From a virus (lineage: Duplodnaviria > Heunggongvirae > Uroviricota > Caudoviricetes), in the IMG/VR virus record IMGVR_UViG_2879742664_000002: a stretch of DNA of 13,683 nucleotides, one strand, 5' to 3'. Under the pieces are notes generated by a model that worked only from the letters and a program-made list of their open reading frames with translations, ran no database searches and was not told where the DNA came from. The translations under genes and the position numbers were made by a program. This document shows positions 1 to 12,415 of this stretch, piece by piece; position 1 is the first letter of the stretch, and every line of letters starts with the position of its first letter.

Positions 1-1107
1 TTAAACCCATTCCTGACCTCGAGTATCGTTATAGCGATCGGTGGTTGCCTGGACTTTATGTCCTAGTAATGTTTTTGTATCGATACCCTGTGCACGGTAC
101 AGCCGTTCTGATAGAGAGCGTTGTTCATGAAATGTTGGCGGAGTTTTTCCTGCTGGTGGAATTATCCCAGCCAGATCCCGTGCTTTGGCAAAGTAGTCGC
201 TCAGGTTGTCTTTACTCATCGGCTTCGGTTGTTTCTGGTGCCGACTATGGATTAGATATGGACTTAATATTCTGTCTCGGCACCCATCAATAACTTCTTT
301 TAACGTTATCCCAATGGCATCACAGCGTAGTGTAAGCGGTAACGCCAGACGCATTCCGGTTTTTCCCTGGGTGATATGCAAGTGTTCGTTCCACGCATCT
401 GAAAAACGCATGTGGCAAATGTCATCACGGCGCTGACCAGTAACAATCGCAAGAAGCATTGCGTTACGGATAAAGTGTTTTTCAGGCGTTGCATTGTAAA
501 TTTTTTGCCAGTCTTCCATGGTGAGCCTGGCTCTGGTTACTTTAGGGATCGGTTTACGGGTAGCCTCCGGAGGATTCCATCCAGGAGGAACTTCCCCTGC
601 ATGCTGTGCTTCTTTATAAATATCAACCCATAATCCACGATTTACTCTCGCTGTGCTGACCATGTCTTTATCCAGCCACTCATCCAGTATTAATGCAAAG
701 TCTCTTACTTCCAGTTCTTTCAATGGGTGGTTTCCCAGACGGGAAACCAGGTATGCAGCCATTCGAGTTTTTTCTTTGTGAGTTGTAGCTGCAATATCTC
801 CATTTTTCAGTCGCGTGTCCTGTATTTTCAGATATCGATCAACCCATGCCTTTAATCTGATACCCCGACGTTTTGTTGCTGACGGACTTTCATCAATTTT
901 GCGCATGAAATATTCAGCTTCTGCTGCAGCTATTCGCTGATTGGCTGTGGAAGCGATTTTTTCTGCCTTACCTTTGTCTGTTCCGAGTCCGTGAAATTTT
1001 CCAGTCACAGGATTTTTATACTGGTAGTAAACTCTGCCAGTTCTGCGATCAAACTTTTCGTAAAGACCGGCTACGTCAGTGCTGTTTTTTCGTGGCCTCG
1101 GTGACAT
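1..1107 (-). CDS. int: Phage tyrosine integrase (lambdoid Int family)
   Basis: 368-aa minus-strand ORF; stop codon is bases 1-3, ATG at 1105-1107 with AAGGAG-type RBS just upstream (plus-strand ctcctt 1118-1123). C-terminal tyrosine-recombinase signature visible in translation (TGQRRDD, HEQRSLSERLY, LLGH, terminal Y in TDRY). Confidence 0.9.
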   Translation of the reverse strand: MSPRPRKNSTDVAGLYEKFDRRTGRVYYQYKNPVTGKFHGLGTDKGKAEKIASTANQRIAAAEAEYFMRKIDESPSATKRRGIRLKAWVDRYLKIQDTRLKNGDIAATTHKEKTRMAAYLVSRLGNHPLKELEVRDFALILDEWLDKDMVSTARVNRGLWVDIYKEAQHAGEVPPGWNPPEATRKPIPKVTRARLTMEDWQKIYNATPEKHFIRNAMLLAIVTGQRRDDICHMRFSDAWNEHLHITQGKTGMRLALPLTLRCDAIGITLKEVIDGCRDRILSPYLIHSRHQKQPKPMSKDNLSDYFAKARDLAGIIPPAGKTPPTFHEQRSLSERLYRAQGIDTKTLLGHKVQATTDRYNDTRGQEWV

Positions 1108-1311
1108 GAGTTAAAATCTCCTTCAGTGCATCATCATCGCCAGTATGAATTTCCGGCGCAATTCCCGTTTCACCTGGCCCAACAAATACTGCTCGGCGAT
1201 CTATCAGCCAACGCCCACGAATTTTTTGTGGTCTTGGAACGATGTATCCTAGTTTTCCGTATTTCACCAGGGTAGTGAGACTGAACCGTTTTGGTTTCCA
1301 CTCGTCGAGCG
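1076..1311 (-). pseudogene. xis: Excisionase (Xis-like) lacking its 5' end and start codon; truncated by IS1
   Basis: Phage-derived part of ORF 1076..1486 (LDEWKPKRFSLTTLVKYGKLGYIVPRPQKIRGRWLIDRRAV...) resembles lambda Xis as recalled (N-terminal ...LTLQEW... then a basic winged-helix region). Overlaps int start by 32 bp as xis-int pairs typically do. Reading frame upstream of 1311 is IS1 sequence. Confidence 0.55.
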
Positions 1312-1366
1312 GGTAATGCTGCCAACTTACTGATTTAGTGTATGATGGTGATTTTAAGGTGCTTGC

Positions 1367-1642
1367 GTGGCTTCCATTTCCATCAGATGTCCTTCCTGCT
1401 CCGCTACTGAAGGCGTGGTGCGTAACGGCAAAAGCACTGCCGGACATCAGCGCTATCTCTGCTCTCATTGCCGTAAAACATGGCAACTACAGTTCACTTA
1501 CACCGCCTCTCAGCCCGGTACGCACCAGAAAATCATTGATATGGCCATGAATGGCGTCGGATGTCGCGCCAGTGCACGCATTATGGGCGTTGGCCTCAAC
1601 ACGGTTTTACGTCACTTAAAAAACTCAGGCCGCAGTCGGTAA
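1367..1642 (+). CDS. insA: IS1 InsA (transposition inhibitor / N-terminal part of InsAB' transposase)
   Basis: 91-aa ORF starting at GTG 1367; translation [43 protein letters not shown]... matches the IS1 InsA zinc-finger/HTH protein as recalled. Confidence 0.9.
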
Positions 1643-1668
1643 CCTCGCGCATATAACCGGGCAGTGAT

Positions 1669-2064
1669 GTGATTGTCTGCGCTGAAATGGACGAACAGTG
1701 GGGCTACGTCGGTGCTAAATCACGTCAGCGCTGGCTGTTTTACGCGTATGACAGGATACGGAGGACGGTTGTGGCGCACGTCTTCGGTGAACGCACTCTG
1801 GCCACACTGGAGCGTCTTCTGAGCCTGCTGTCGGCCTTTGAGGTCGTGGTATGGATGACGGATGGCTGGCCGCTGTATGAATCACGCCTGAAGGGAAAGC
1901 TGCACGTTATCAGCAAGCGTTACACTCAGCGCATTGAGCGACATAATCTGAATCTGAGACAACATCTGGCAAGGCTGGGACGGAAGTCACTGTCGTTCTC
2001 AAAATCGGTGGAGCTGCATGACAAGGTCATCGGGCATTATCTGAACATAAAACACTATCAGTAA
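1669..2064 (+). CDS. insB: IS1 InsB frame (expressed as InsAB' fusion by -1 frameshift)
   Basis: 131-aa ORF ([28 protein letters not shown]...[15 protein letters not shown]) matching IS1 InsB as recalled. Frame is open upstream of 1669 and overlaps the insA end, consistent with programmed frameshifting at the A6C motif. Confidence 0.85.
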
Positions 2065-2079
2065 GTTGGAGTCATTACC

Positions 2080-3097
2080 CGCCGACTGCCTGGAATTTAT
2101 CTGGTCGTTACCCGAAAATTCTGTTGACCTGATAGTCACGGACCCGCCGTACTTTAAAGTGAAGCCTGAGGGCTGGGATAACCAGTGGAAGGGCGACGAT
2201 GATTACCTGAAGTGGCTGGAGCAGTGTCTGGCGCAGTTCTGGCGGGTGCTGAAACCTGCCGGAAGTCTTTACCTGTTCTGTGGTCATCGCCTGGCATCTG
2301 ATATCGAAATCATGATGCGTGAACGCTTCAGTGTGCTGAACCATATTATCTGAGCGAAGCCGTCCGGACGCTGGAACGGATGCAACAAGGAAAGCCTGCG
2401 GGCGTATTTCCCCGCCACAGAGCGCATTCTGTTCGCGGAACATTATCAGGGGCCGTACCGCCCGAAAGATGATGGCTATGAGGCGAAGGGCAGTGCACTG
2501 AAACAGCATGTGATGGCCCCGCTGATTTCTTACTTTCGTGATGCGCGAGCTGCCCTGGGGATAACGGCAAAACAGATTGCAGATGCCACAGGAAAGAAAA
2601 ACATGGTGTCGCACTGGTTCAGTGCCAGTCAGTGGCAGTTGCCGAATGAAAGCGATTATCTGAAATTACAGGCGCTGTTTGCCCGGGTGGCAGAAGAGAA
2701 GCATCGGCGTGGTGAACTGGAAAAGCTCCACCACCAGCTGGTGGATACGTATACCTCACTGAACCGGCAGTATGCGGAGCTGCTGAGTGAATATAAACAT
2801 CTGCGGCGGTATTTTGGCGTGACGGTGCAGGTGCCGTATACCGATGTGTGGACGCATAAACCGGTGCAGTTCTATCCCGGGAAACATCCGTGCGAAAAAC
2901 CGGCAGAAATGCTGCAGCAGATAATCAGCGCTAGCAGTCGTCCGGGTGACCTGATTGCAGATTTTTTCATGGGGTCGGGTTCGACAGTGAAAGCGGCACT
3001 GGCGCTCGGGCGTCGTGCAATTGGCGTTGAGCTGGAGACTGAACGTTTTGAGCAGACGGTTCGGGAAGTACAGGATTTAGTCAGCCAGAACGGATGA
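2080..3097 (+). pseudogene. Beta-class DNA methyltransferase (DPPY type, probably N6-adenine), N-terminally truncated by IS1 and interrupted by in-frame TGA at 2351-2353
   Basis: A single frame carries motif IV (LIVTDPPY), an HPCEKP motif, and motif I (DFFMGSGST) near the C-terminus, with stop at 3095-3097. The only interruption is TGA 2351-2353 in the sequence NHII*AKPSGRWNG. No native start codon downstream of the IS1 end; first in-frame start (TTG 2066) lies inside IS1. Confidence 0.7.
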
Positions 3098-3137
3098 TAT
3101 TGAAGAATTAATTACGCGTCGTTATTATGCGGCTCCC

Positions 3138-3213
3138 GGCCCTTTAGCTCAGTGGTGAGAGCGAGCGACTCATAATCGCCAGGTCGCTGGTTCAAATCCA
3201 GCAAGGGCCACCA
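3138..3213 (+). tRNA. ileZ: tRNA with CAT anticodon, ileX/ileY-like (tRNA-Ile2, lysidine-type; tRNAscan would call it Met)
   Basis: Hand-folded cloverleaf: acceptor ggccctt/aagggcc, D arm gctc-agtggtga-gagc, anticodon stem agcga/tcgcc with loop ctCATaa, T arm gctgg-ttcaaat-ccagc, discriminator A, encoded CCA. Gene symbol follows the prophage tRNA trio of Stx phages as recalled. Confidence 0.85.
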
Positions 3214-3220
3214 TCACATA

Positions 3221-3297
3221 CCGCCATTAGCTCATCAGGAAAGAGCGCCAGCCTTCGAAGCTGGCTGCGCGGGGTTCAAGTCCCCGATGGCGGTCCA
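3221..3297 (+). tRNA. argN: tRNA-Arg, anticodon read as TCG
   Basis: Hand-folded cloverleaf: acceptor ccgccat/atggcgg, D arm gctc-atcaggaaa-gagc, anticodon stem ccagc/gctgg with loop ctTCGaa, T arm cgggg-ttcaagt-ccccg, encoded CCA. Anticodon and symbol assignment are from manual folding and memory, not a tRNA-finder run. Confidence 0.75.
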
Positions 3298-3310
3298 TTA
3301 TCTGCATCAT

Positions 3311-3387
3311 GCGTTGTTAGCTCAGCCGGACAGAGCAATTGCCTTCTAAGCAATCGGTCACTGGTTCGAATCCAGTACAACGCGCCA
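3311..3387 (+). tRNA. argO: tRNA-Arg, anticodon TCT (reads AGA)
   Basis: Hand-folded cloverleaf: acceptor gcgttgt/acaacgc, D arm gctc-agccggaca-gagc, anticodon stem attgc/gcaat with loop ctTCTaa, T arm actgg-ttcgaat-ccagt, discriminator G, encoded CCA. Confidence 0.8.
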
Positions 3388-3401
3388 CACTTATTTTCCC
3401 T

Positions 3402-3427
3402 GGCTCGCTTTTGCGGGCTTTTTTTTT
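3402..3427 (+). terminator. Rho-independent terminator after the tRNA cluster
   Basis: Stem gctcgc (3403-3408) / gcgggc (3413-3418) with one G-U pair, tttt loop, followed by a run of 9 T (3419-3427). Confidence 0.55.
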
Positions 3428-3623
3428 AAATGTCTCACAATTCAGACGGTTGACTGTTGTCTGGTTTGCGGGGAGTTTGTTAAAAGAAACTGGCATGGTG
3501 AATCCCCCTGTGCGGAGGGGCAATCAGCGAGTAGGTATATGGGATAATCGCGGATTCAGGTGCTGGTACTGAATTCACCGGGAGGCACCCGGCACCATGC
3601 AATGGCACATAGCGCCACTCTCC

Positions 3624-3650
3624 AGCCCCTCTCCGGAGGGGCTTTCTTGT
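3624..3650 (+). terminator. GC-rich hairpin with T-rich tail (candidate plus-strand terminator)
   Basis: 8-bp stem agcccctc (3624-3631) / gaggggct (3636-3643), loop tccg, then ttcttgt. Confidence 0.4.
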
Positions 3651-3653
3651 GGG

Positions 3654-3683
3654 CAAAAAAAGCCCGCGCTGGGAGACGCGGGC
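3654..3683 (-). terminator. Candidate minus-strand rho-independent terminator
   Basis: Stem gcccgcg (3662-3668) / cgcgggc (3677-3683) with 8-nt loop, preceded on the plus strand by an A7 run, i.e. hairpin followed by T7 when read on the minus strand. Confidence 0.4.
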
Positions 3684-3876
3684 GGCAAGGAATAAACAAT
3701 AAAACGTGAAGTAATATTTCAGCTGGCGAATAATACCCCATAGTAGTCACTCTGCGCAACTGCGCGGTCTTTTTCGAATTGCGGGCTGTCGTCTCTCTTC
3801 TGCCATTGTCCTGTAACTTCCGGACTTCAGCCCGCTCCTCATTTTACTCACAATATTATCCCGGCCGGGAGGATTC

Positions 3877-4956
3877 ATGGCTTTTAAACACTATGATGTT
3901 GTCAGGGCGGCGTCGCCGTCAGATCTTGCGGAAAAGCTGACACATAAACTGAAAGAGGGCTGGCAGCCGTTTGGTAGTCCGGTGGCCATAACCCCTTATA
4001 CTCTGATGCAGGCGATTGCAGCAGAAGGTGCAGTAATCAGCGCCACCAGCGACCCGGAGTATTACTTTGTTGTGGTTCTGGCAGGGCAGTCAAACGGCAT
4101 GTCGTATGGTGAAGGCCTTCCGCTGCCGGGGACATATGACCGTCCGGACCCGCGTATTAAGCAACTGGCGCGTCGCAGTACGGTGACACCGGGCGGTGCA
4201 GCATGCAAATATAACGACATCATTCTGGCGGACCATTGTCTGCATGATGTGCAGGACATGAGCCGTCTTAACCATCCGAAAGCGGACCTGTCAAAGGGGC
4301 AGTACGGAACCGTGGGGCAGGGGCTGCATATCGCCAAAAAACTGCTGCCGTTTATACCGGCGAATGCGGGCATTCTGCTGGTTCCGTGCTGTCGTGGTGG
4401 TTCAGCGTTCACCACCGGAGCTGATGGCACATACAGTGACGCGAGTGGTGCCTCGGAGAATTCAACCCGCTGGGGTGTGGACAAGCCGCTGTATAAGGAC
4501 CTTATCGGTCGAACAAAAGCGGCACTGGAGAAGAACCCGAAAAATGTGCTGTTTGCCGTGGTGTGGATGCAGGGGGAATTTGATTTTGGCGGTACGCCGG
4601 CAAATCATGCCGCACAGTTTGGTGCGCTGGTTGATAAATTCCGTGCAGACCTGGCGGATATGGCAGGCCAGTGCGTCGGTGGCTCTGCTGGCGGTGTTCC
4701 CTGGATATGCGGGGACACGACGTATTTCTGGAAGCAGAAGAACGAATCCACGTACCAGACGGTGTACGGCAGCTATAAAAATAAAACGGAAAAGAATATC
4801 CATTTCGTACCGTTCATGACCGATGAGAACGGGGTGAATGTGCCGACGAACAAACCGGAAGAAGACCCGGACATTCGGGGTATCGGTTATTACGGTTCGA
4901 AATGGCGTGACAGCTCAGCCACCTGGACGTCACAGGACAGGGCGAGCCATTTCTAG
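3877..4956 (+). CDS. Prophage NanS-p-like sialate O-acetylesterase (N-terminal DUF1737-like region plus SGNH/SASA esterase domain), probably C-terminally truncated
   Basis: ATG 3877 with GGGAGGA RBS (3866-3872). Translation begins MAFKHYDVVRAASPSDLAEKL... and contains the esterase motif VVVLAGQSNGMSYGEG. ORF ends at TAG 4954-4956, exactly where IS66-like sequence begins; relatives are recalled as roughly 600 aa or more. Confidence 0.7.
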   Translation: MAFKHYDVVRAASPSDLAEKLTHKLKEGWQPFGSPVAITPYTLMQAIAAEGAVISATSDPEYYFVVVLAGQSNGMSYGEGLPLPGTYDRPDPRIKQLARRSTVTPGGAACKYNDIILADHCLHDVQDMSRLNHPKADLSKGQYGTVGQGLHIAKKLLPFIPANAGILLVPCCRGGSAFTTGADGTYSDASGASENSTRWGVDKPLYKDLIGRTKAALEKNPKNVLFAVVWMQGEFDFGGTPANHAAQFGALVDKFRADLADMAGQCVGGSAGGVPWICGDTTYFWKQKNESTYQTVYGSYKNKTEKNIHFVPFMTDENGVNVPTNKPEEDPDIRGIGYYGSKWRDSSATWTSQDRASHF

Positions 4957-5291
4957 ACTGGCCCCCTGAATCTCCAGACAACCAGTATCACTTAAATAAG
5001 TGATAGTCTTAATACTAGTTTTTAGACTAGTCATTGGAGTACAGATGATTGATGTCTTAGGGCCGGAGAAACGCAGACGGCGTACCACACAGGAAAAGAT
5101 CGCAATTGTTCAGCAGAGCTTTGAACCGGGGATGACGGTCTCCCTCGTTGCCCGGCAACATGGTGTAGCAGCCAGCCAGTTATTTCTCTGGCGTAAGCAA
5201 TACCAGGAAGGAAGTCTTACTGCTGTGGCCGCCGGAGAACAGGTTGTTCCTGCCTCTGAACTTGCTGCCGCCATGAAGCAGATTAAAGAAC
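4957..5291 (+). mobile_element. IS66-family left-end fragment (leader plus 5' part of orf1), cut by IS629
   Basis: Contains an orf1 (HTH_Tnp_1-type, ISEc8-like as recalled) preceded by an 88-bp leader with palindromes. Right boundary is the IS629 left terminus at 5292. Left boundary is approximate; no GTAAGCG-type terminus seen at this end. Confidence 0.5.
5045..5291 (+). pseudogene. IS66-family orf1/TnpA (helix-turn-helix accessory protein), 3'-truncated by IS629
   Basis: ATG 5045 with GGAG RBS. Translation [58 protein letters not shown]...MKQIKEL runs into the IS629 terminus after about 82 codons; the tail NRPGNPGD of the ORF is IS629-encoded. Confidence 0.6.
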
Positions 5292-5345
5292 TGAACCGCC
5301 CCGGGAATCCTGGAGACTAAACTCCCTGAGAAAGAGGTAAACAGG

Positions 5346-5672
5346 ATGACTAAAAATACTCGTTTTTCCCCCGAAGTCCGTCAGAGGGCGATTCGTATGG
5401 TTCTGGAAAGTCAGGGCGAATATGACTCACAGTGGGCGGCAATTTGTTCCATTGCCCCAAAGATTGGCTGTATACCGGAGACTCTGCGTGTCTGGGTACG
5501 CCAGCATGAGCGGGATACCGGAGGCGGTGATGGCGGGCTCACCACCGCTGAACGTCAGCGTCTGAAAGAGCTGGAACGTGAAAATCGTGAACTGCGCCGC
5601 AGTAACGATATCCTTCGCCAGGCTTCCGCTTATTTTGCGAAGGCGGAGTTCGACCGCCTCTGGAAAAAGTGA
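5346..5672 (+). CDS. IS629 OrfA (HTH DNA-binding part of the transposase)
   Basis: 108-aa [45 protein letters not shown]... with leucine-zipper-like C-terminus, typical IS3-family OrfA. Confidence 0.9.
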
Positions 5673-6559
5673 TGCCACTGCTGGATAAGCTGCGTAAGCT
5701 GTACGGGGTCGGACCGGTATGCAGTGAACTACATATTGCCCCGTCAACGTATTACCACTGTCAGCAACAGCGACATCATCCTGATAAACGCAGTGCCCGT
5801 GCGCAGCGCGATGACTGGCTGAAGAAAGAGATACTGCGCGTATACGATGGGAATCATCAGGTATACGGTGTGCGTAAAGTCTGGCGTCAGTTGTTACGGG
5901 AAGGTATCAGAGTGGCCAGATGCACTGTGGCACGTCTCATGGCGGTTATGGGACTTGCCGGTGTTCTCCGGGGTAAAAAGGTCCGTACGACCATCAGCCG
6001 GAAAGCCGTTGCCGCAGGCGACCGCGTAAACCGTCAGTTCGTGGCAGAACGACCTGACCAGCTGTGGGTGGCTGATTTTACTTACGTCAGCACATGGCAG
6101 GGCTTCGTCTATGTGGCGTTCATTATTGATGTGTTTGCCGGATACATCGTGGGGTGGCGGGTCTCATCGTCCATGGAAACGACATTCGTGCTGGATGCTC
6201 TGGAGCAGGCGTTATGGGCCCGTCGACCGTCCGGCACGGTCCATCACAGTGATAAAGGTTCTCAGTATGTATCGCTGGCCTACACACAGCGGCTTAAGGA
6301 AGCCGGATTACTGGCATCAACAGGAAGTACAGGCGACTCGTATGACAACGCGATGGCGGAGAGCATCAATGGTCTTTACAAAGCGGAGGTAATACACCGT
6401 AAGAGCTGGAAAAACCGTGCAGAAGTGGAACTGGCCACACTCACGTGGGTGGACTGGTATAATAATCGACGATTGCTGGAAAGGCTGGGCCACATCCCTC
6501 CGGCAGAAGCAGAAAAAGCTTATTATGCTTCCATCGGAAACGATGATCTGGCAGCCTGA
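5669..6559 (+). CDS. IS629 OrfB (DDE catalytic domain; expressed as OrfAB by -1 frameshift)
   Basis: 296-aa ORF overlapping the orfA end in the -1 frame; DDE-type integrase-fold hallmarks ([24 protein letters not shown]). Confidence 0.9.
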
Positions 6560-6602
6560 GTTCACAGATAAAACACTCTCCAGGAAACCCGGGGCGGTTC
6601 AG

Positions 6603-6953
6603 GGTGAGGGTGGTGAAGGCCATCTGAGTTCTTTCTTTGTCCAGACAGATAAAGCCAGTATTAATGTTGCATACCATCATACAGTTAATCAACAAAAAGA
6701 ACTTGGCACGTTTGGCGCATTCGACCATGACTGGCATACGCTTGCATTTAAATTTAAGGGCAGTAACAGCATTAATGTTACTCCGGTGCTTGATGGTGTG
6801 GATGGACAGGCGTTTGACCTGGTGAAATGGGCCAATACTGCTAATGGACTCAACAGGTTTGTCATTACGGATATTACAGGTAGTGCAGAAACCTACCCTG
6901 TACTTATTGATACGGTGGAAGTTAAAGCAAACAAAGCTGGAGCAGCCGCATAA
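6603..6953 (+). pseudogene. Start-less C-terminal ORF fragment (116 codons) resuming at the IS629 right end; possibly the displaced 3' part of the nanS-p-like gene
   Basis: Reading frame is open from the first base after IS629 to TAA 6951-6953 (GEGGEGHLSSFFVQTDKASINVAYHH...VEVKANKAGAAA); no start codon outside the IS. Assignment to nanS-p is inference only. Confidence 0.4.
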
Positions 6954-10986: not shown

Positions 10987-12415
10987 GTAAGCGTCAACGG
11001 AGCACCGTATTGACGCTTATTTATTGGTGAGTGCTACGTTCCATGGCAGGAGTTCGTCAACACGGTTGGAAGGCCATTCCGGCAGTACGCTCAGGATATA
11101 GCGCAGATACGCTTCCGGATCGATACCGTTCAGTCGGCAGGTGCCGATCAGCCCGTACAGTAGCGCACCACGCTCTCCACCGTGATCGCTGCCGAAGAAC
11201 ATAAAGTTTTTCTTTCCGAGACAGACTGCACGAAGCGCTCTTTCCGCGGCATTATTATCCGCCTCAGCCAGACCATCATCACTGAAGTTGCACAACGCAA
11301 CCCAGTGCTTCCTGATATACCGGAACGCATCTCTCAGACGGCATTTTTTCGATAACGTGTGTTCTTTCTCCTGCATCAGCTTATACAGGGAAGTCAGTAG
11401 CGGTTTACTCTGCATTTGCCTGACCGCCAGGCGTTCAGACACCGGCAACCCGCGTATTTCGTGCTCGATGGCGTACAGCTCACCGATTAGTTTCAGGGCT
11501 TCTTCCGCTGTCGCGCTTTTGGTACTGATATATACATCGTGGACTTTGCGCCGCGCATGAGCCCAGCATCCTGCTTCCGTCAACGCGCCGCCTTCTCGTT
11601 CGGCACTGAACAGCCGATCGTAACCATTAAACGCATCTGCCTGCAGGATACCCCGGAAGGGACTAAGGTGCTGCTCCGGATGTTTACCCTGATGGTCCGG
11701 TGAGTAGGCGAACCAGACCGCCGGAGGCTCTGGCGAACCGGCATTCCTGTCATCCCGGACATACGTCCAGATATATCCTGTTTTCGCCTTCTTCCTGCCC
11801 GGTGCCAGCACTTTTACTGGTGTGTCATCAGTGTGAACTTTGCGGCTGTTCATTACATAACGGTACAGAGCATCATTCAGCGGCGTCATTAACTGGCAGC
11901 ACGCGTCAACCCAGTTGGAGAGTAATGCACGGCTCAGTTCGACACCCTGACGGGCAAAAATTTCACTCTGACGATACAGTGGCAGGTGTTCGCAGTATTT
12001 TCCCGTTAACACGCGGGCAAGTAACCCCGGGCCCGCGATACCACGCTCTATCGGACGGGATGGTGCCGGTGCTTCAACGATGCAGTCACATTTTGTACAG
12101 GCTTTTTTTACCCGTTCTGTGCGGATCACTTTCAGAGCGCTGCTCACCAGTTCCAGTTGTTCTGCGCTGACTTCCCCCAGATAATCCAGCTCACCGCCAC
12201 ACTCCGGGCAACAGCTTTCTTCTGGCTCCAGGCGATTTATTTCGCGGGGCAGATGCTCCGGTAACGGGCGACGATGACGAGACTGTCGCAACTGGCGGGG
12301 AACCTGCGGATCGTCTTCCCGCCCACTGTAACGATCACTGTCCTGTTCGCGTTGTTTCAGCAGGGCCTCAGCCTGTTCAACTTCACGACGCAGTTTTTCA
12401 GAACGGGTACCGAAC
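10987..12415 (-). mobile_element. IS66-family element, right-end portion (terminal repeat plus tnpC), truncated by IS629
   Basis: GTAAGCG terminal motif at 10987-10993 (typical IS66 terminus as recalled); tnpC-type ORF on the minus strand; abuts the IS629 left terminus at 12416. Confidence 0.7.
11017..12415 (-). pseudogene. IS66-family transposase TnpC (DDE_Tnp_IS66 type), 5'-truncated by IS629
   Basis: Frame open from the IS629 junction with no ATG (FGTRSEKLRREVEQAEALLKQ... then CCPECGGEL zinc-ribbon motif, LPLYRQSEIFARQGVELSRALL, DDTPVKV, C-terminal LLPWNV); stop at 11017-11019. About the first 50 codons are missing. Confidence 0.8.

Follow-up and report, generated by a model that had tools for sequence, protein, structure and literature searches.

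M.EcoGII and M.EcoGI are non-specific N6-adenine methyltransferases encoded by prophages of E. coli O104:H4 C227-11 (Murray et al. 2018, PMC5778455). M.EcoGII acts on adenine whatever the surrounding sequence; it remains silent in lysogens, and its constitutive expression gives slow-growing and unstable clones. Phage 1720a-02 was named in the same work as the carrier of a methyltransferase very similar to it (PMC5778455). The term "nonspecific" has been assigned to homologues at about 92–93% similarity (PMC6602927). Class beta methyltransferases show a defined motif order, with the catalytic motif followed by the TRD and then by the FxGxG AdoMet motif (PMC7544214). In Stx-converting and other lambdoid phages, including Stx2_95 (BCI50293.1) and phiP27, a "DNA methylase" gene lies between Q and the tRNA/stx genes. 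The genus Shigella is known for IS expansion and pseudogene accumulation. The locus described here very probably carries a fixed TGG-to-TGA change at Trp105 of an already beheaded M.EcoGII-type prophage methyltransferase gene, in a decayed stx-less lambdoid prophage of S. flexneri serotype 6.

The window, that is, the whole stretch of 13,683 nucleotides analysed, was 100% identical over 10,956 nt to CP026811.1, the chromosome of Shigella flexneri 64-5500, serotype 6 (PMC9455713). A lambdoid prophage integrase gene (368 aa; 1–1107, minus strand), for which Pfam Arm-DNA-bind_1 and Phage_integrase were matched in identical loci, forms the left end of the prophage remnant and adjoins potC/potD in the source genomes (BPD_transp_1/SBP neighbours). 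The window is the remnant of an stx-less lambdoid prophage in S. flexneri serotype 6. Its methylase gene shares 94–95% nucleotide identity with the methylase genes of the Stx phages, and in Stx-converting and other lambdoid phages the methylase is followed, as in the window, by three tRNAs and then by the esterase, holin and lysozyme genes. In contrast to the Stx phages, the prophage in the window lacks stx, Q and the early region, and has an STnc100-type sRNA sequence in the post-tRNA spacer.

Direct reading of the window gave TGA at 2351–2353. The translation of the frame 2066+3n runs ...MMRERFSVLNHII, then the stop, then AKPSGRWNGCNKESL..., and the hallmark motifs DPPY, HPCEKP and FFMGSGST, which the original prediction had placed in one frame, were all seen in this translation, with the coordinates exact. 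In the list of open reading frames, the methylase frame is split into 2066–2353 and 2510–3097 and is otherwise free of stops from 2066 to the natural stop at 3095–3097. We aligned the DNA with three intact genes, from the Stx2a phage Stx2_95, an E. coli O121 prophage and a pig E. coli prophage. Window positions 2080–3097 aligned with the Stx2_95 and O121 genes without gaps through to the stop codon, and the pig E. coli allele was gap-free against the window until its divergent last ~10 codons and ends earlier. At position 2353, the window has A and all three intact genes have G. The intact protein reads NHIIWAKPSG at this site, and the mutated residue is Trp105 in intact numbering. These results establish a nonsense codon, TGA for TGG, at 2351–2353 on the plus strand, produced by a G-to-A transition at 2353. 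The predicted change from TGG and the predicted status of this TGA as the sole interruption of the frame were both confirmed by the gap-free alignment to intact 352-aa prophage enzymes, in which the Trp codon is TGG and A occurs only in the window. The M.EcoGII-family beta-class N6-adenine DNA methyltransferase pseudogene thus annotated occupies 2080–3097 (plus strand), starts at codon 14 of a 352-codon gene and holds one nonsense codon. A Dcm deamination hotspot was also considered and rejected: on visual inspection of the context ATCTGGGCG, neither strand has a CCWGG site, and the change is simply a generic G:C to A:T transition.

With Trp put back, the restored product matched Pfam PF01555 (N6_N4_Mtase) at 151.3 bits against a cut-off of 26.7, over positions 1–219 of the 221 in the profile, and the methylase also matched the DNA methyltransferase profiles phrog_67, phrog_6025 and phrog_6952. 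The motifs follow each other in the frame as DPPY (residues 26–29 of the 95-codon ORF described below), TRD and, near the C-terminus, FMGSGS, which is the class beta order. The gene therefore belongs to the beta-class amino-methyltransferases, as had been proposed on its motifs. We then searched an intact homologue against 1.84 billion cluster representatives (50%-identity clusters) and aligned the 128 matches of 250–450 aa, which were 33–69% identical to the query. The residue aligned to Trp105 was W in 126 of these 128 family representatives, and K was kept two residues later in 125 of them, whereas the second Ile varied (V, R, T or I). Hence, of the I-I-W-x-K block that the original prediction had expected here, the Trp and Lys were borne out and the second Ile was not. 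In the solved beta-class enzymes 9c3u/8urk and in M.RsrI, "iiW" aligned at the Trp105 position. The relationship to M.RsrI (1eg2/1nw8) and 9c3u/8urk is distant: motif IV and the "iiW" strand align (E = 1e-21 to 1e-25 with the full-length query), but just these two stretches do, and the target-recognition regions differ. An uninterrupted coding sequence is absent from the window, the 5' end being lost to IS1 at 2079/2080 and TGA standing in frame at 2351–2353, and the gene would accordingly be classed as a pseudogene of the PF01555 family and not as a working member. Two database relatives showed rearrangements of their own, a 34-residue tandem duplication around KHLRRYFGVT...GKHPC (P0001) and a deletion in the coiled region (P0010); each is known from a single short contig and may be an assembly artefact.

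The restored protein was identical to M.EcoGII at 311 of 339 residues (~92%), an approximate value, as the M.EcoGII sequence was taken from supplementary file 5 of PMC11551740, which was machine-read with visible reading errors. The gene of phage 1720a-02 showed 94.7% nucleotide identity to the gene in the window. The window copy resembles M.EcoGII and M.EcoGI, besides this ~92% amino acid identity, in its N-terminal DPPY, central TRD and C-terminal FxGxG and in residing on a lambdoid prophage; it differs in lacking codons 1–13 and in having a stop at Trp105, and would be unable to make the enzyme. By kinship to M.EcoGII, the intact ancestor of the window allele would be expected to have produced motif-less m6A. 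Since the gene is broken, the window copy is predicted not to carry out the sequence-context-independent adenine methylation of DNA and RNA that marks the M.EcoGII / M.EcoGI group.

The methylase family was matched in 2684 of the 5426 complete E. coli genomes searched, with up to 7 matches per genome. The window allele was absent from these complete RefSeq E. coli genomes (n = 5426), in which the best full-length match was 96.5%. The closest allele with a native N-terminus came from a Nepal/Hadza gut metagenome contig (L008; 97.7% identity, TGG at Trp105). At about 5085–5100 of that contig, an extra T in the T-run before FMGSGST results in a 330-aa product, which could be an inactivation of separate origin or a fault of the assembly. 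Among intact relatives, the gene order is Q antiterminator, 65-aa ORF, methylase, three tRNAs, (stx), SASA esterase, holin and lysozyme. This late-operon placement suggests that the methylase is made on prophage induction only. Compared with this order, the window keeps the part downstream of the methylase, whereas Q and everything upstream are deleted. The PHROG collection contains separate families for the N-half (phrog_6025; residues 1–204) and the C-half (phrog_6952; residues 171–349) of the methylase, indicating that many phage genomes carry it in two pieces, broken near residue 170–200; recurrent disruption of a toxic gene and recurrent sequencing frameshifts would both fit these split copies.

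An IS1 element of 768 bp (1312–2079, plus strand) directly precedes the methylase sequence. Its terminal inverted repeats (1309–1334 and 2057–2082) are 88% complementary over 26 nt, and insA (1367–1642, 91 aa) and insB (1669–2064, 131 aa) lie on the plus strand, oriented toward the methylase; Pfam Zn_ribbon_InsA, HTH_Tnp_IS1 and DDE_Tnp_IS1 were matched in identical loci. Methylase homology starts at 2080, partway through the intact gene's codon 14, in agreement with the original claim that IS1 had removed the start. On the other side, an excisionase gene fragment (1076–1311, minus strand; phrog_629, E = 1.6e-20, profile positions 7–81 of 82) lacks its 5' end at the IS1 border. The 9-mers at the two IS1 ends are unequal (cgtcgagcg versus cgccgactg), so there is no target-site duplication, and the excisionase and methylase genes that flank IS1 lie about 12–14 kb apart in intact phages, the methylase of Stx2_95 being at about 14.2 kb. 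Because the flanking 9-mers differ and the flanks are non-contiguous phage genes, the sequence indicates that IS1 marks the product of a deletion or recombination and not a simple insertion. What is missing is the entire region for early functions, regulation and replication, Q and the late promoter among it, together with the methylase promoter, ribosome-binding site, start codon and residues 1–13. In an AlphaFold model of an intact homologue (P0003), residues 1–13 form part of an N-terminal beta-hairpin with pLDDT 81–90 over residues 1–20; the mean pLDDT of the model was 66, with values <50 around residues 99–144, and we used the N-terminal hairpin alone.

Carriers of the locus were retrieved through the exact sequences of the esterase fragment and of the 95-aa product of the broken methylase, which yielded 19 loci in 18 distinct assemblies. 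All 19 loci, from complete chromosomes and drafts of different projects, had A at the stop position, and each matched the window at 99.6% identity or more, over lengths of up to 5.3 kb. The IS1-methylase junction was present wherever the contig reaches; one draft contig (L013) starts just downstream of it. The TGA alleles were all identical over the methylase gene. The 95-aa product is recorded on 36 contigs under the name "MULTISPECIES [Shigella]", and one TGA carrier, CP000036.1, is presumably S. boydii Sb227. The TGA is thus fixed in the S. flexneri 6 and S. boydii carriers retrieved. These carriers differ in later IS events, for example in having a 359-aa or a 462-aa esterase remnant, and the TGA is therefore older than those insertions.

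Among the results of the protein search was a 343-aa S. boydii protein (P0002) that starts with MESLPADC, from the start codon in the IS1 end, yet reads NHIIWAKPSG. This protein and its cluster mate P0121 led to S. boydii CDC 3083-94 (CP001063.1), which has the same IS1-methylase junction, keeps TGG and shares 99.5% identity with the window across 2.9 kb. In CDC 3083-94 (L014, 4805–6136), a second IS lies within the right end of IS1, directly upstream of the truncated methylase that retains TGG, and the GenBank CDS ACD09190.1 (391 aa) of this strain is extended upstream over the second IS into non-methylase sequence. Outgroup comparison polarised the changes: A at 2353 is derived, as are a D-to-E missense substitution at 2221 and two synonymous ones. 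The window differs from CDC 3083-94 at 9 positions, and 4 of these, clustered within 10 bp (2472–2481), agree with a different prophage allele, which suggests a recombination patch. Because CDC 3083-94 has the identical junction with TGG, the alignments place the IS1 truncation first, in the common ancestor, and the nonsense mutation second, in a sub-lineage that includes S. flexneri 6. The IS1-methylase junction had no match among GTDB species representatives or JGI metagenome contigs, and no intermediates were found there. The inactivation had been called recent; this stands insofar as the TGA is younger than the IS1 truncation, yet the TGA is already fixed in the clade of S. flexneri 6 and S. 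boydii.

Two open reading frames remain of the gene. A 95-codon stub (2066–2353, plus strand) begins with a TTG located in the right-hand end of IS1, a single nucleotide past the insB stop, and is annotated as a separate "DNA methyltransferase"; it consists of MESLP followed by methylase residues 15–104, including DPPY. Any translated product would be this 95-residue stub, and it should have no methyltransferase activity, because, despite the presence of DPPY, both the target-recognition region and the FxGxG AdoMet-binding motif are missing from it. The orphan 194-codon C-terminal ORF (2513–3097, plus strand) contains the TRD and the FxGxG AdoMet motif and is called as a gene in identical loci. 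It is an artefact of annotating the split gene. The first in-frame restarts, at 2510 and 2513, lie 52 codons past the stop, with no Shine-Dalgarno-like sequence read upstream of either, and would yield a half without DPPY.

Several other explanations of the stop codon were weighed against these data. A sequencing or assembly error, with TGG in the true genome, would explain why the window differs by a single base from all intact homologues. However, the same base occurs in 18 distinct assemblies from different projects, complete and draft, and the 95-aa and 194-aa split products have been deposited under many accessions; such an error has almost no probability, and the correction to TGG for which the original prediction had left room is excluded by these independent assemblies. 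Practically negligible, too, is the idea that the stop marks where a two-subunit methyltransferase is naturally divided, or that it encodes selenocysteine. The separate N-half and C-half families in PHROGs are compatible with two subunits, but they part near residues 170–204 and not at 105, and a stretch of 52 codons before the next start would stay untranslated. The homologues, for which the original prediction had envisaged a natural stop or separately translated halves as the contrary outcome, are single chains of 348–352 aa with Trp, and no SECIS-like hairpin was found at the window stop. UGA readthrough by tRNA-Trp, or reinitiation, might instead keep some active enzyme with a weak methylation function. 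UGA is the leakiest stop in E. coli, decoding by the near-cognate tRNA-Trp would reinsert the original Trp and so restore the wild-type residue, and the frame is otherwise intact 3' of the stop. Against this, the promoter, ribosome-binding site, start codon and residues 1–13 are missing, and the earlier suggestion that readthrough could yield full-length enzyme fails on this point, as the product would at best lack residues 1–13 and the native promoter and start are gone. The fold of 2345–2420 (76 nt), downstream of and including the stop, was no more stable than shuffled sequences (z = -0.06), and ARAGORN found no opal suppressor in the adjacent tRNA cluster (CAT, TCG, TCT). Homologues never have a stop at the Trp105 position; with TGG in the homologues and no structured element 3' of the stop, the marks of programmed UGA recoding are absent. 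Reinitiation would depend on the restarts at 2510/2513, without Shine-Dalgarno sequence and able to give only the half without DPPY. We regard residual enzyme by either route as highly improbable.

Another explanation, compatible with a pseudogene, is that the TGA was selected: the IS1 fusion would have leaked a harmful non-specific adenine methyltransferase, which the stop then removed. The slow growth and instability of constitutive M.EcoGII clones are consistent with such harm (PMC5778455). So are the orientation of insA and insB toward the methylase, with the TTG start 1 nt after the insB stop, the second IS in the IS1 right end upstream of the methylase in CDC 3083-94, the sole TGG-retaining relative found, and the frequent splitting or truncation of the family, as in the PHROG half-families and the T-run frameshift of L008. 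On the other hand, IS1 insertions are classically polar on downstream genes, and the truncated enzyme, without its modelled N-terminal beta-hairpin, may already have been dead. One nonsense change per about 1 kb of unconstrained DNA is the drift expectation in Shigella, and the four lineage-specific changes (1 missense, 1 nonsense, 2 synonymous) are too few for a selection test. We consider selection of the stop unlikely. A combined account, in which the IS1 fusion left an active non-specific methyltransferase, the TGA was selected to detoxify it and tRNA-Trp readthrough still sprinkles trace context-free m6A, is very improbable.

We therefore favour a nonsense mutation in a methylase gene that had already lost its 5' end. 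In the ancestor of the Shigella clade, an IS1-associated deletion removed everything from the excisionase gene to methylase codon 14, so that the gene lost its promoter and Q along with its ribosome-binding site, its start codon and the 13 N-terminal residues; a later G-to-A transition created the TGA. The data show the mutation, its polarity and fixation, the order of the two events and the family of the gene; expression and activity are probably absent at the locus, as judged from its sequence. No finding contradicts a pseudogene. On the other side of the balance stand the lack of a second disruption of the frame since the TGA and the position of the stub start 1 nt past the insB stop, by which IS1 transcripts could in principle reach the stub. 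The decay of the methylase gene is shallow, because the TGA alleles are identical over the gene.

The remainder of the prophage shows further features. A cluster of three tRNA genes with anticodons CAT, TCG and TCT (3138–3387, plus strand; ARAGORN and Rfam tRNA) follows the methylase in the same order in all relatives. The first (3138–3213, plus strand) is called Met (CAT) by ARAGORN, whereas RefSeq names its E. coli counterpart tRNA-Ile; presumably it is a lysidine-modified ileZ-type tRNA. A promoter-like site (3100–3128) and a terminator-like hairpin (3402–3419) border the cluster, so the tRNAs may still be expressed on their own. In the post-tRNA spacer, the place of stxAB in Stx phages, positions 3464–3654 (plus strand) gave a full-length match to the Rfam sRNA STnc100 (139 bits against a gathering score of 47), ending in a hairpin and then a T-run. 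The SASA/DUF1737 (nanS-p-type) esterase gene (3877–4956 and 6417–6953, plus strand) is split by an IS3-family element at about 5288–6602, with inverted repeats at 5291–5316 and 6577–6602 and an ALIL frameshift pseudoknot at 5627–5743; in related Shigella genomes the esterase is broken differently, leaving the 462-aa remnant. A second IS3-family copy starts at 12412 and continues up to the window's end. Between it and the lysis region lies a 424-aa ORF (11017–12291, minus strand) whose translation looks by eye like an IS66-family transposase, an apparent further sign of IS saturation of the remnant. With an IS1-associated deletion, an IS3-split esterase, an IS66-family element and a point nonsense mutation within 13.7 kb, the window is a typical instance of IS-driven prophage and gene decay in Shigella, from which it differs in no respect.

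The methylase locus is nothing new in kind: it is a broken copy of a well-characterised and very common prophage gene, and reflects routine decay of a Shigella prophage. As one more documented step in that well-known decay, it matters little in itself. In annotation, a single pseudogene underlies both the 95-aa and the 194-aa "DNA methyltransferase" CDS deposited for S. flexneri 6 and S. boydii genomes, and surveys of methylomes and restriction-modification systems should not count either as an active methyltransferase. Given its membership in the M.EcoGII family, the gene would, if intact, be expected to produce m6A without a specific motif; because the closest characterised relative, M.EcoGII, is non-specific, the methylome signal to expect is motif-less, and not the prophage-specific motif that had been proposed as a check. 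As lineage markers, the IS1 junction and the derived TGA are clean and ordered, and they connect S. flexneri serotype 6 with part of S. boydii.
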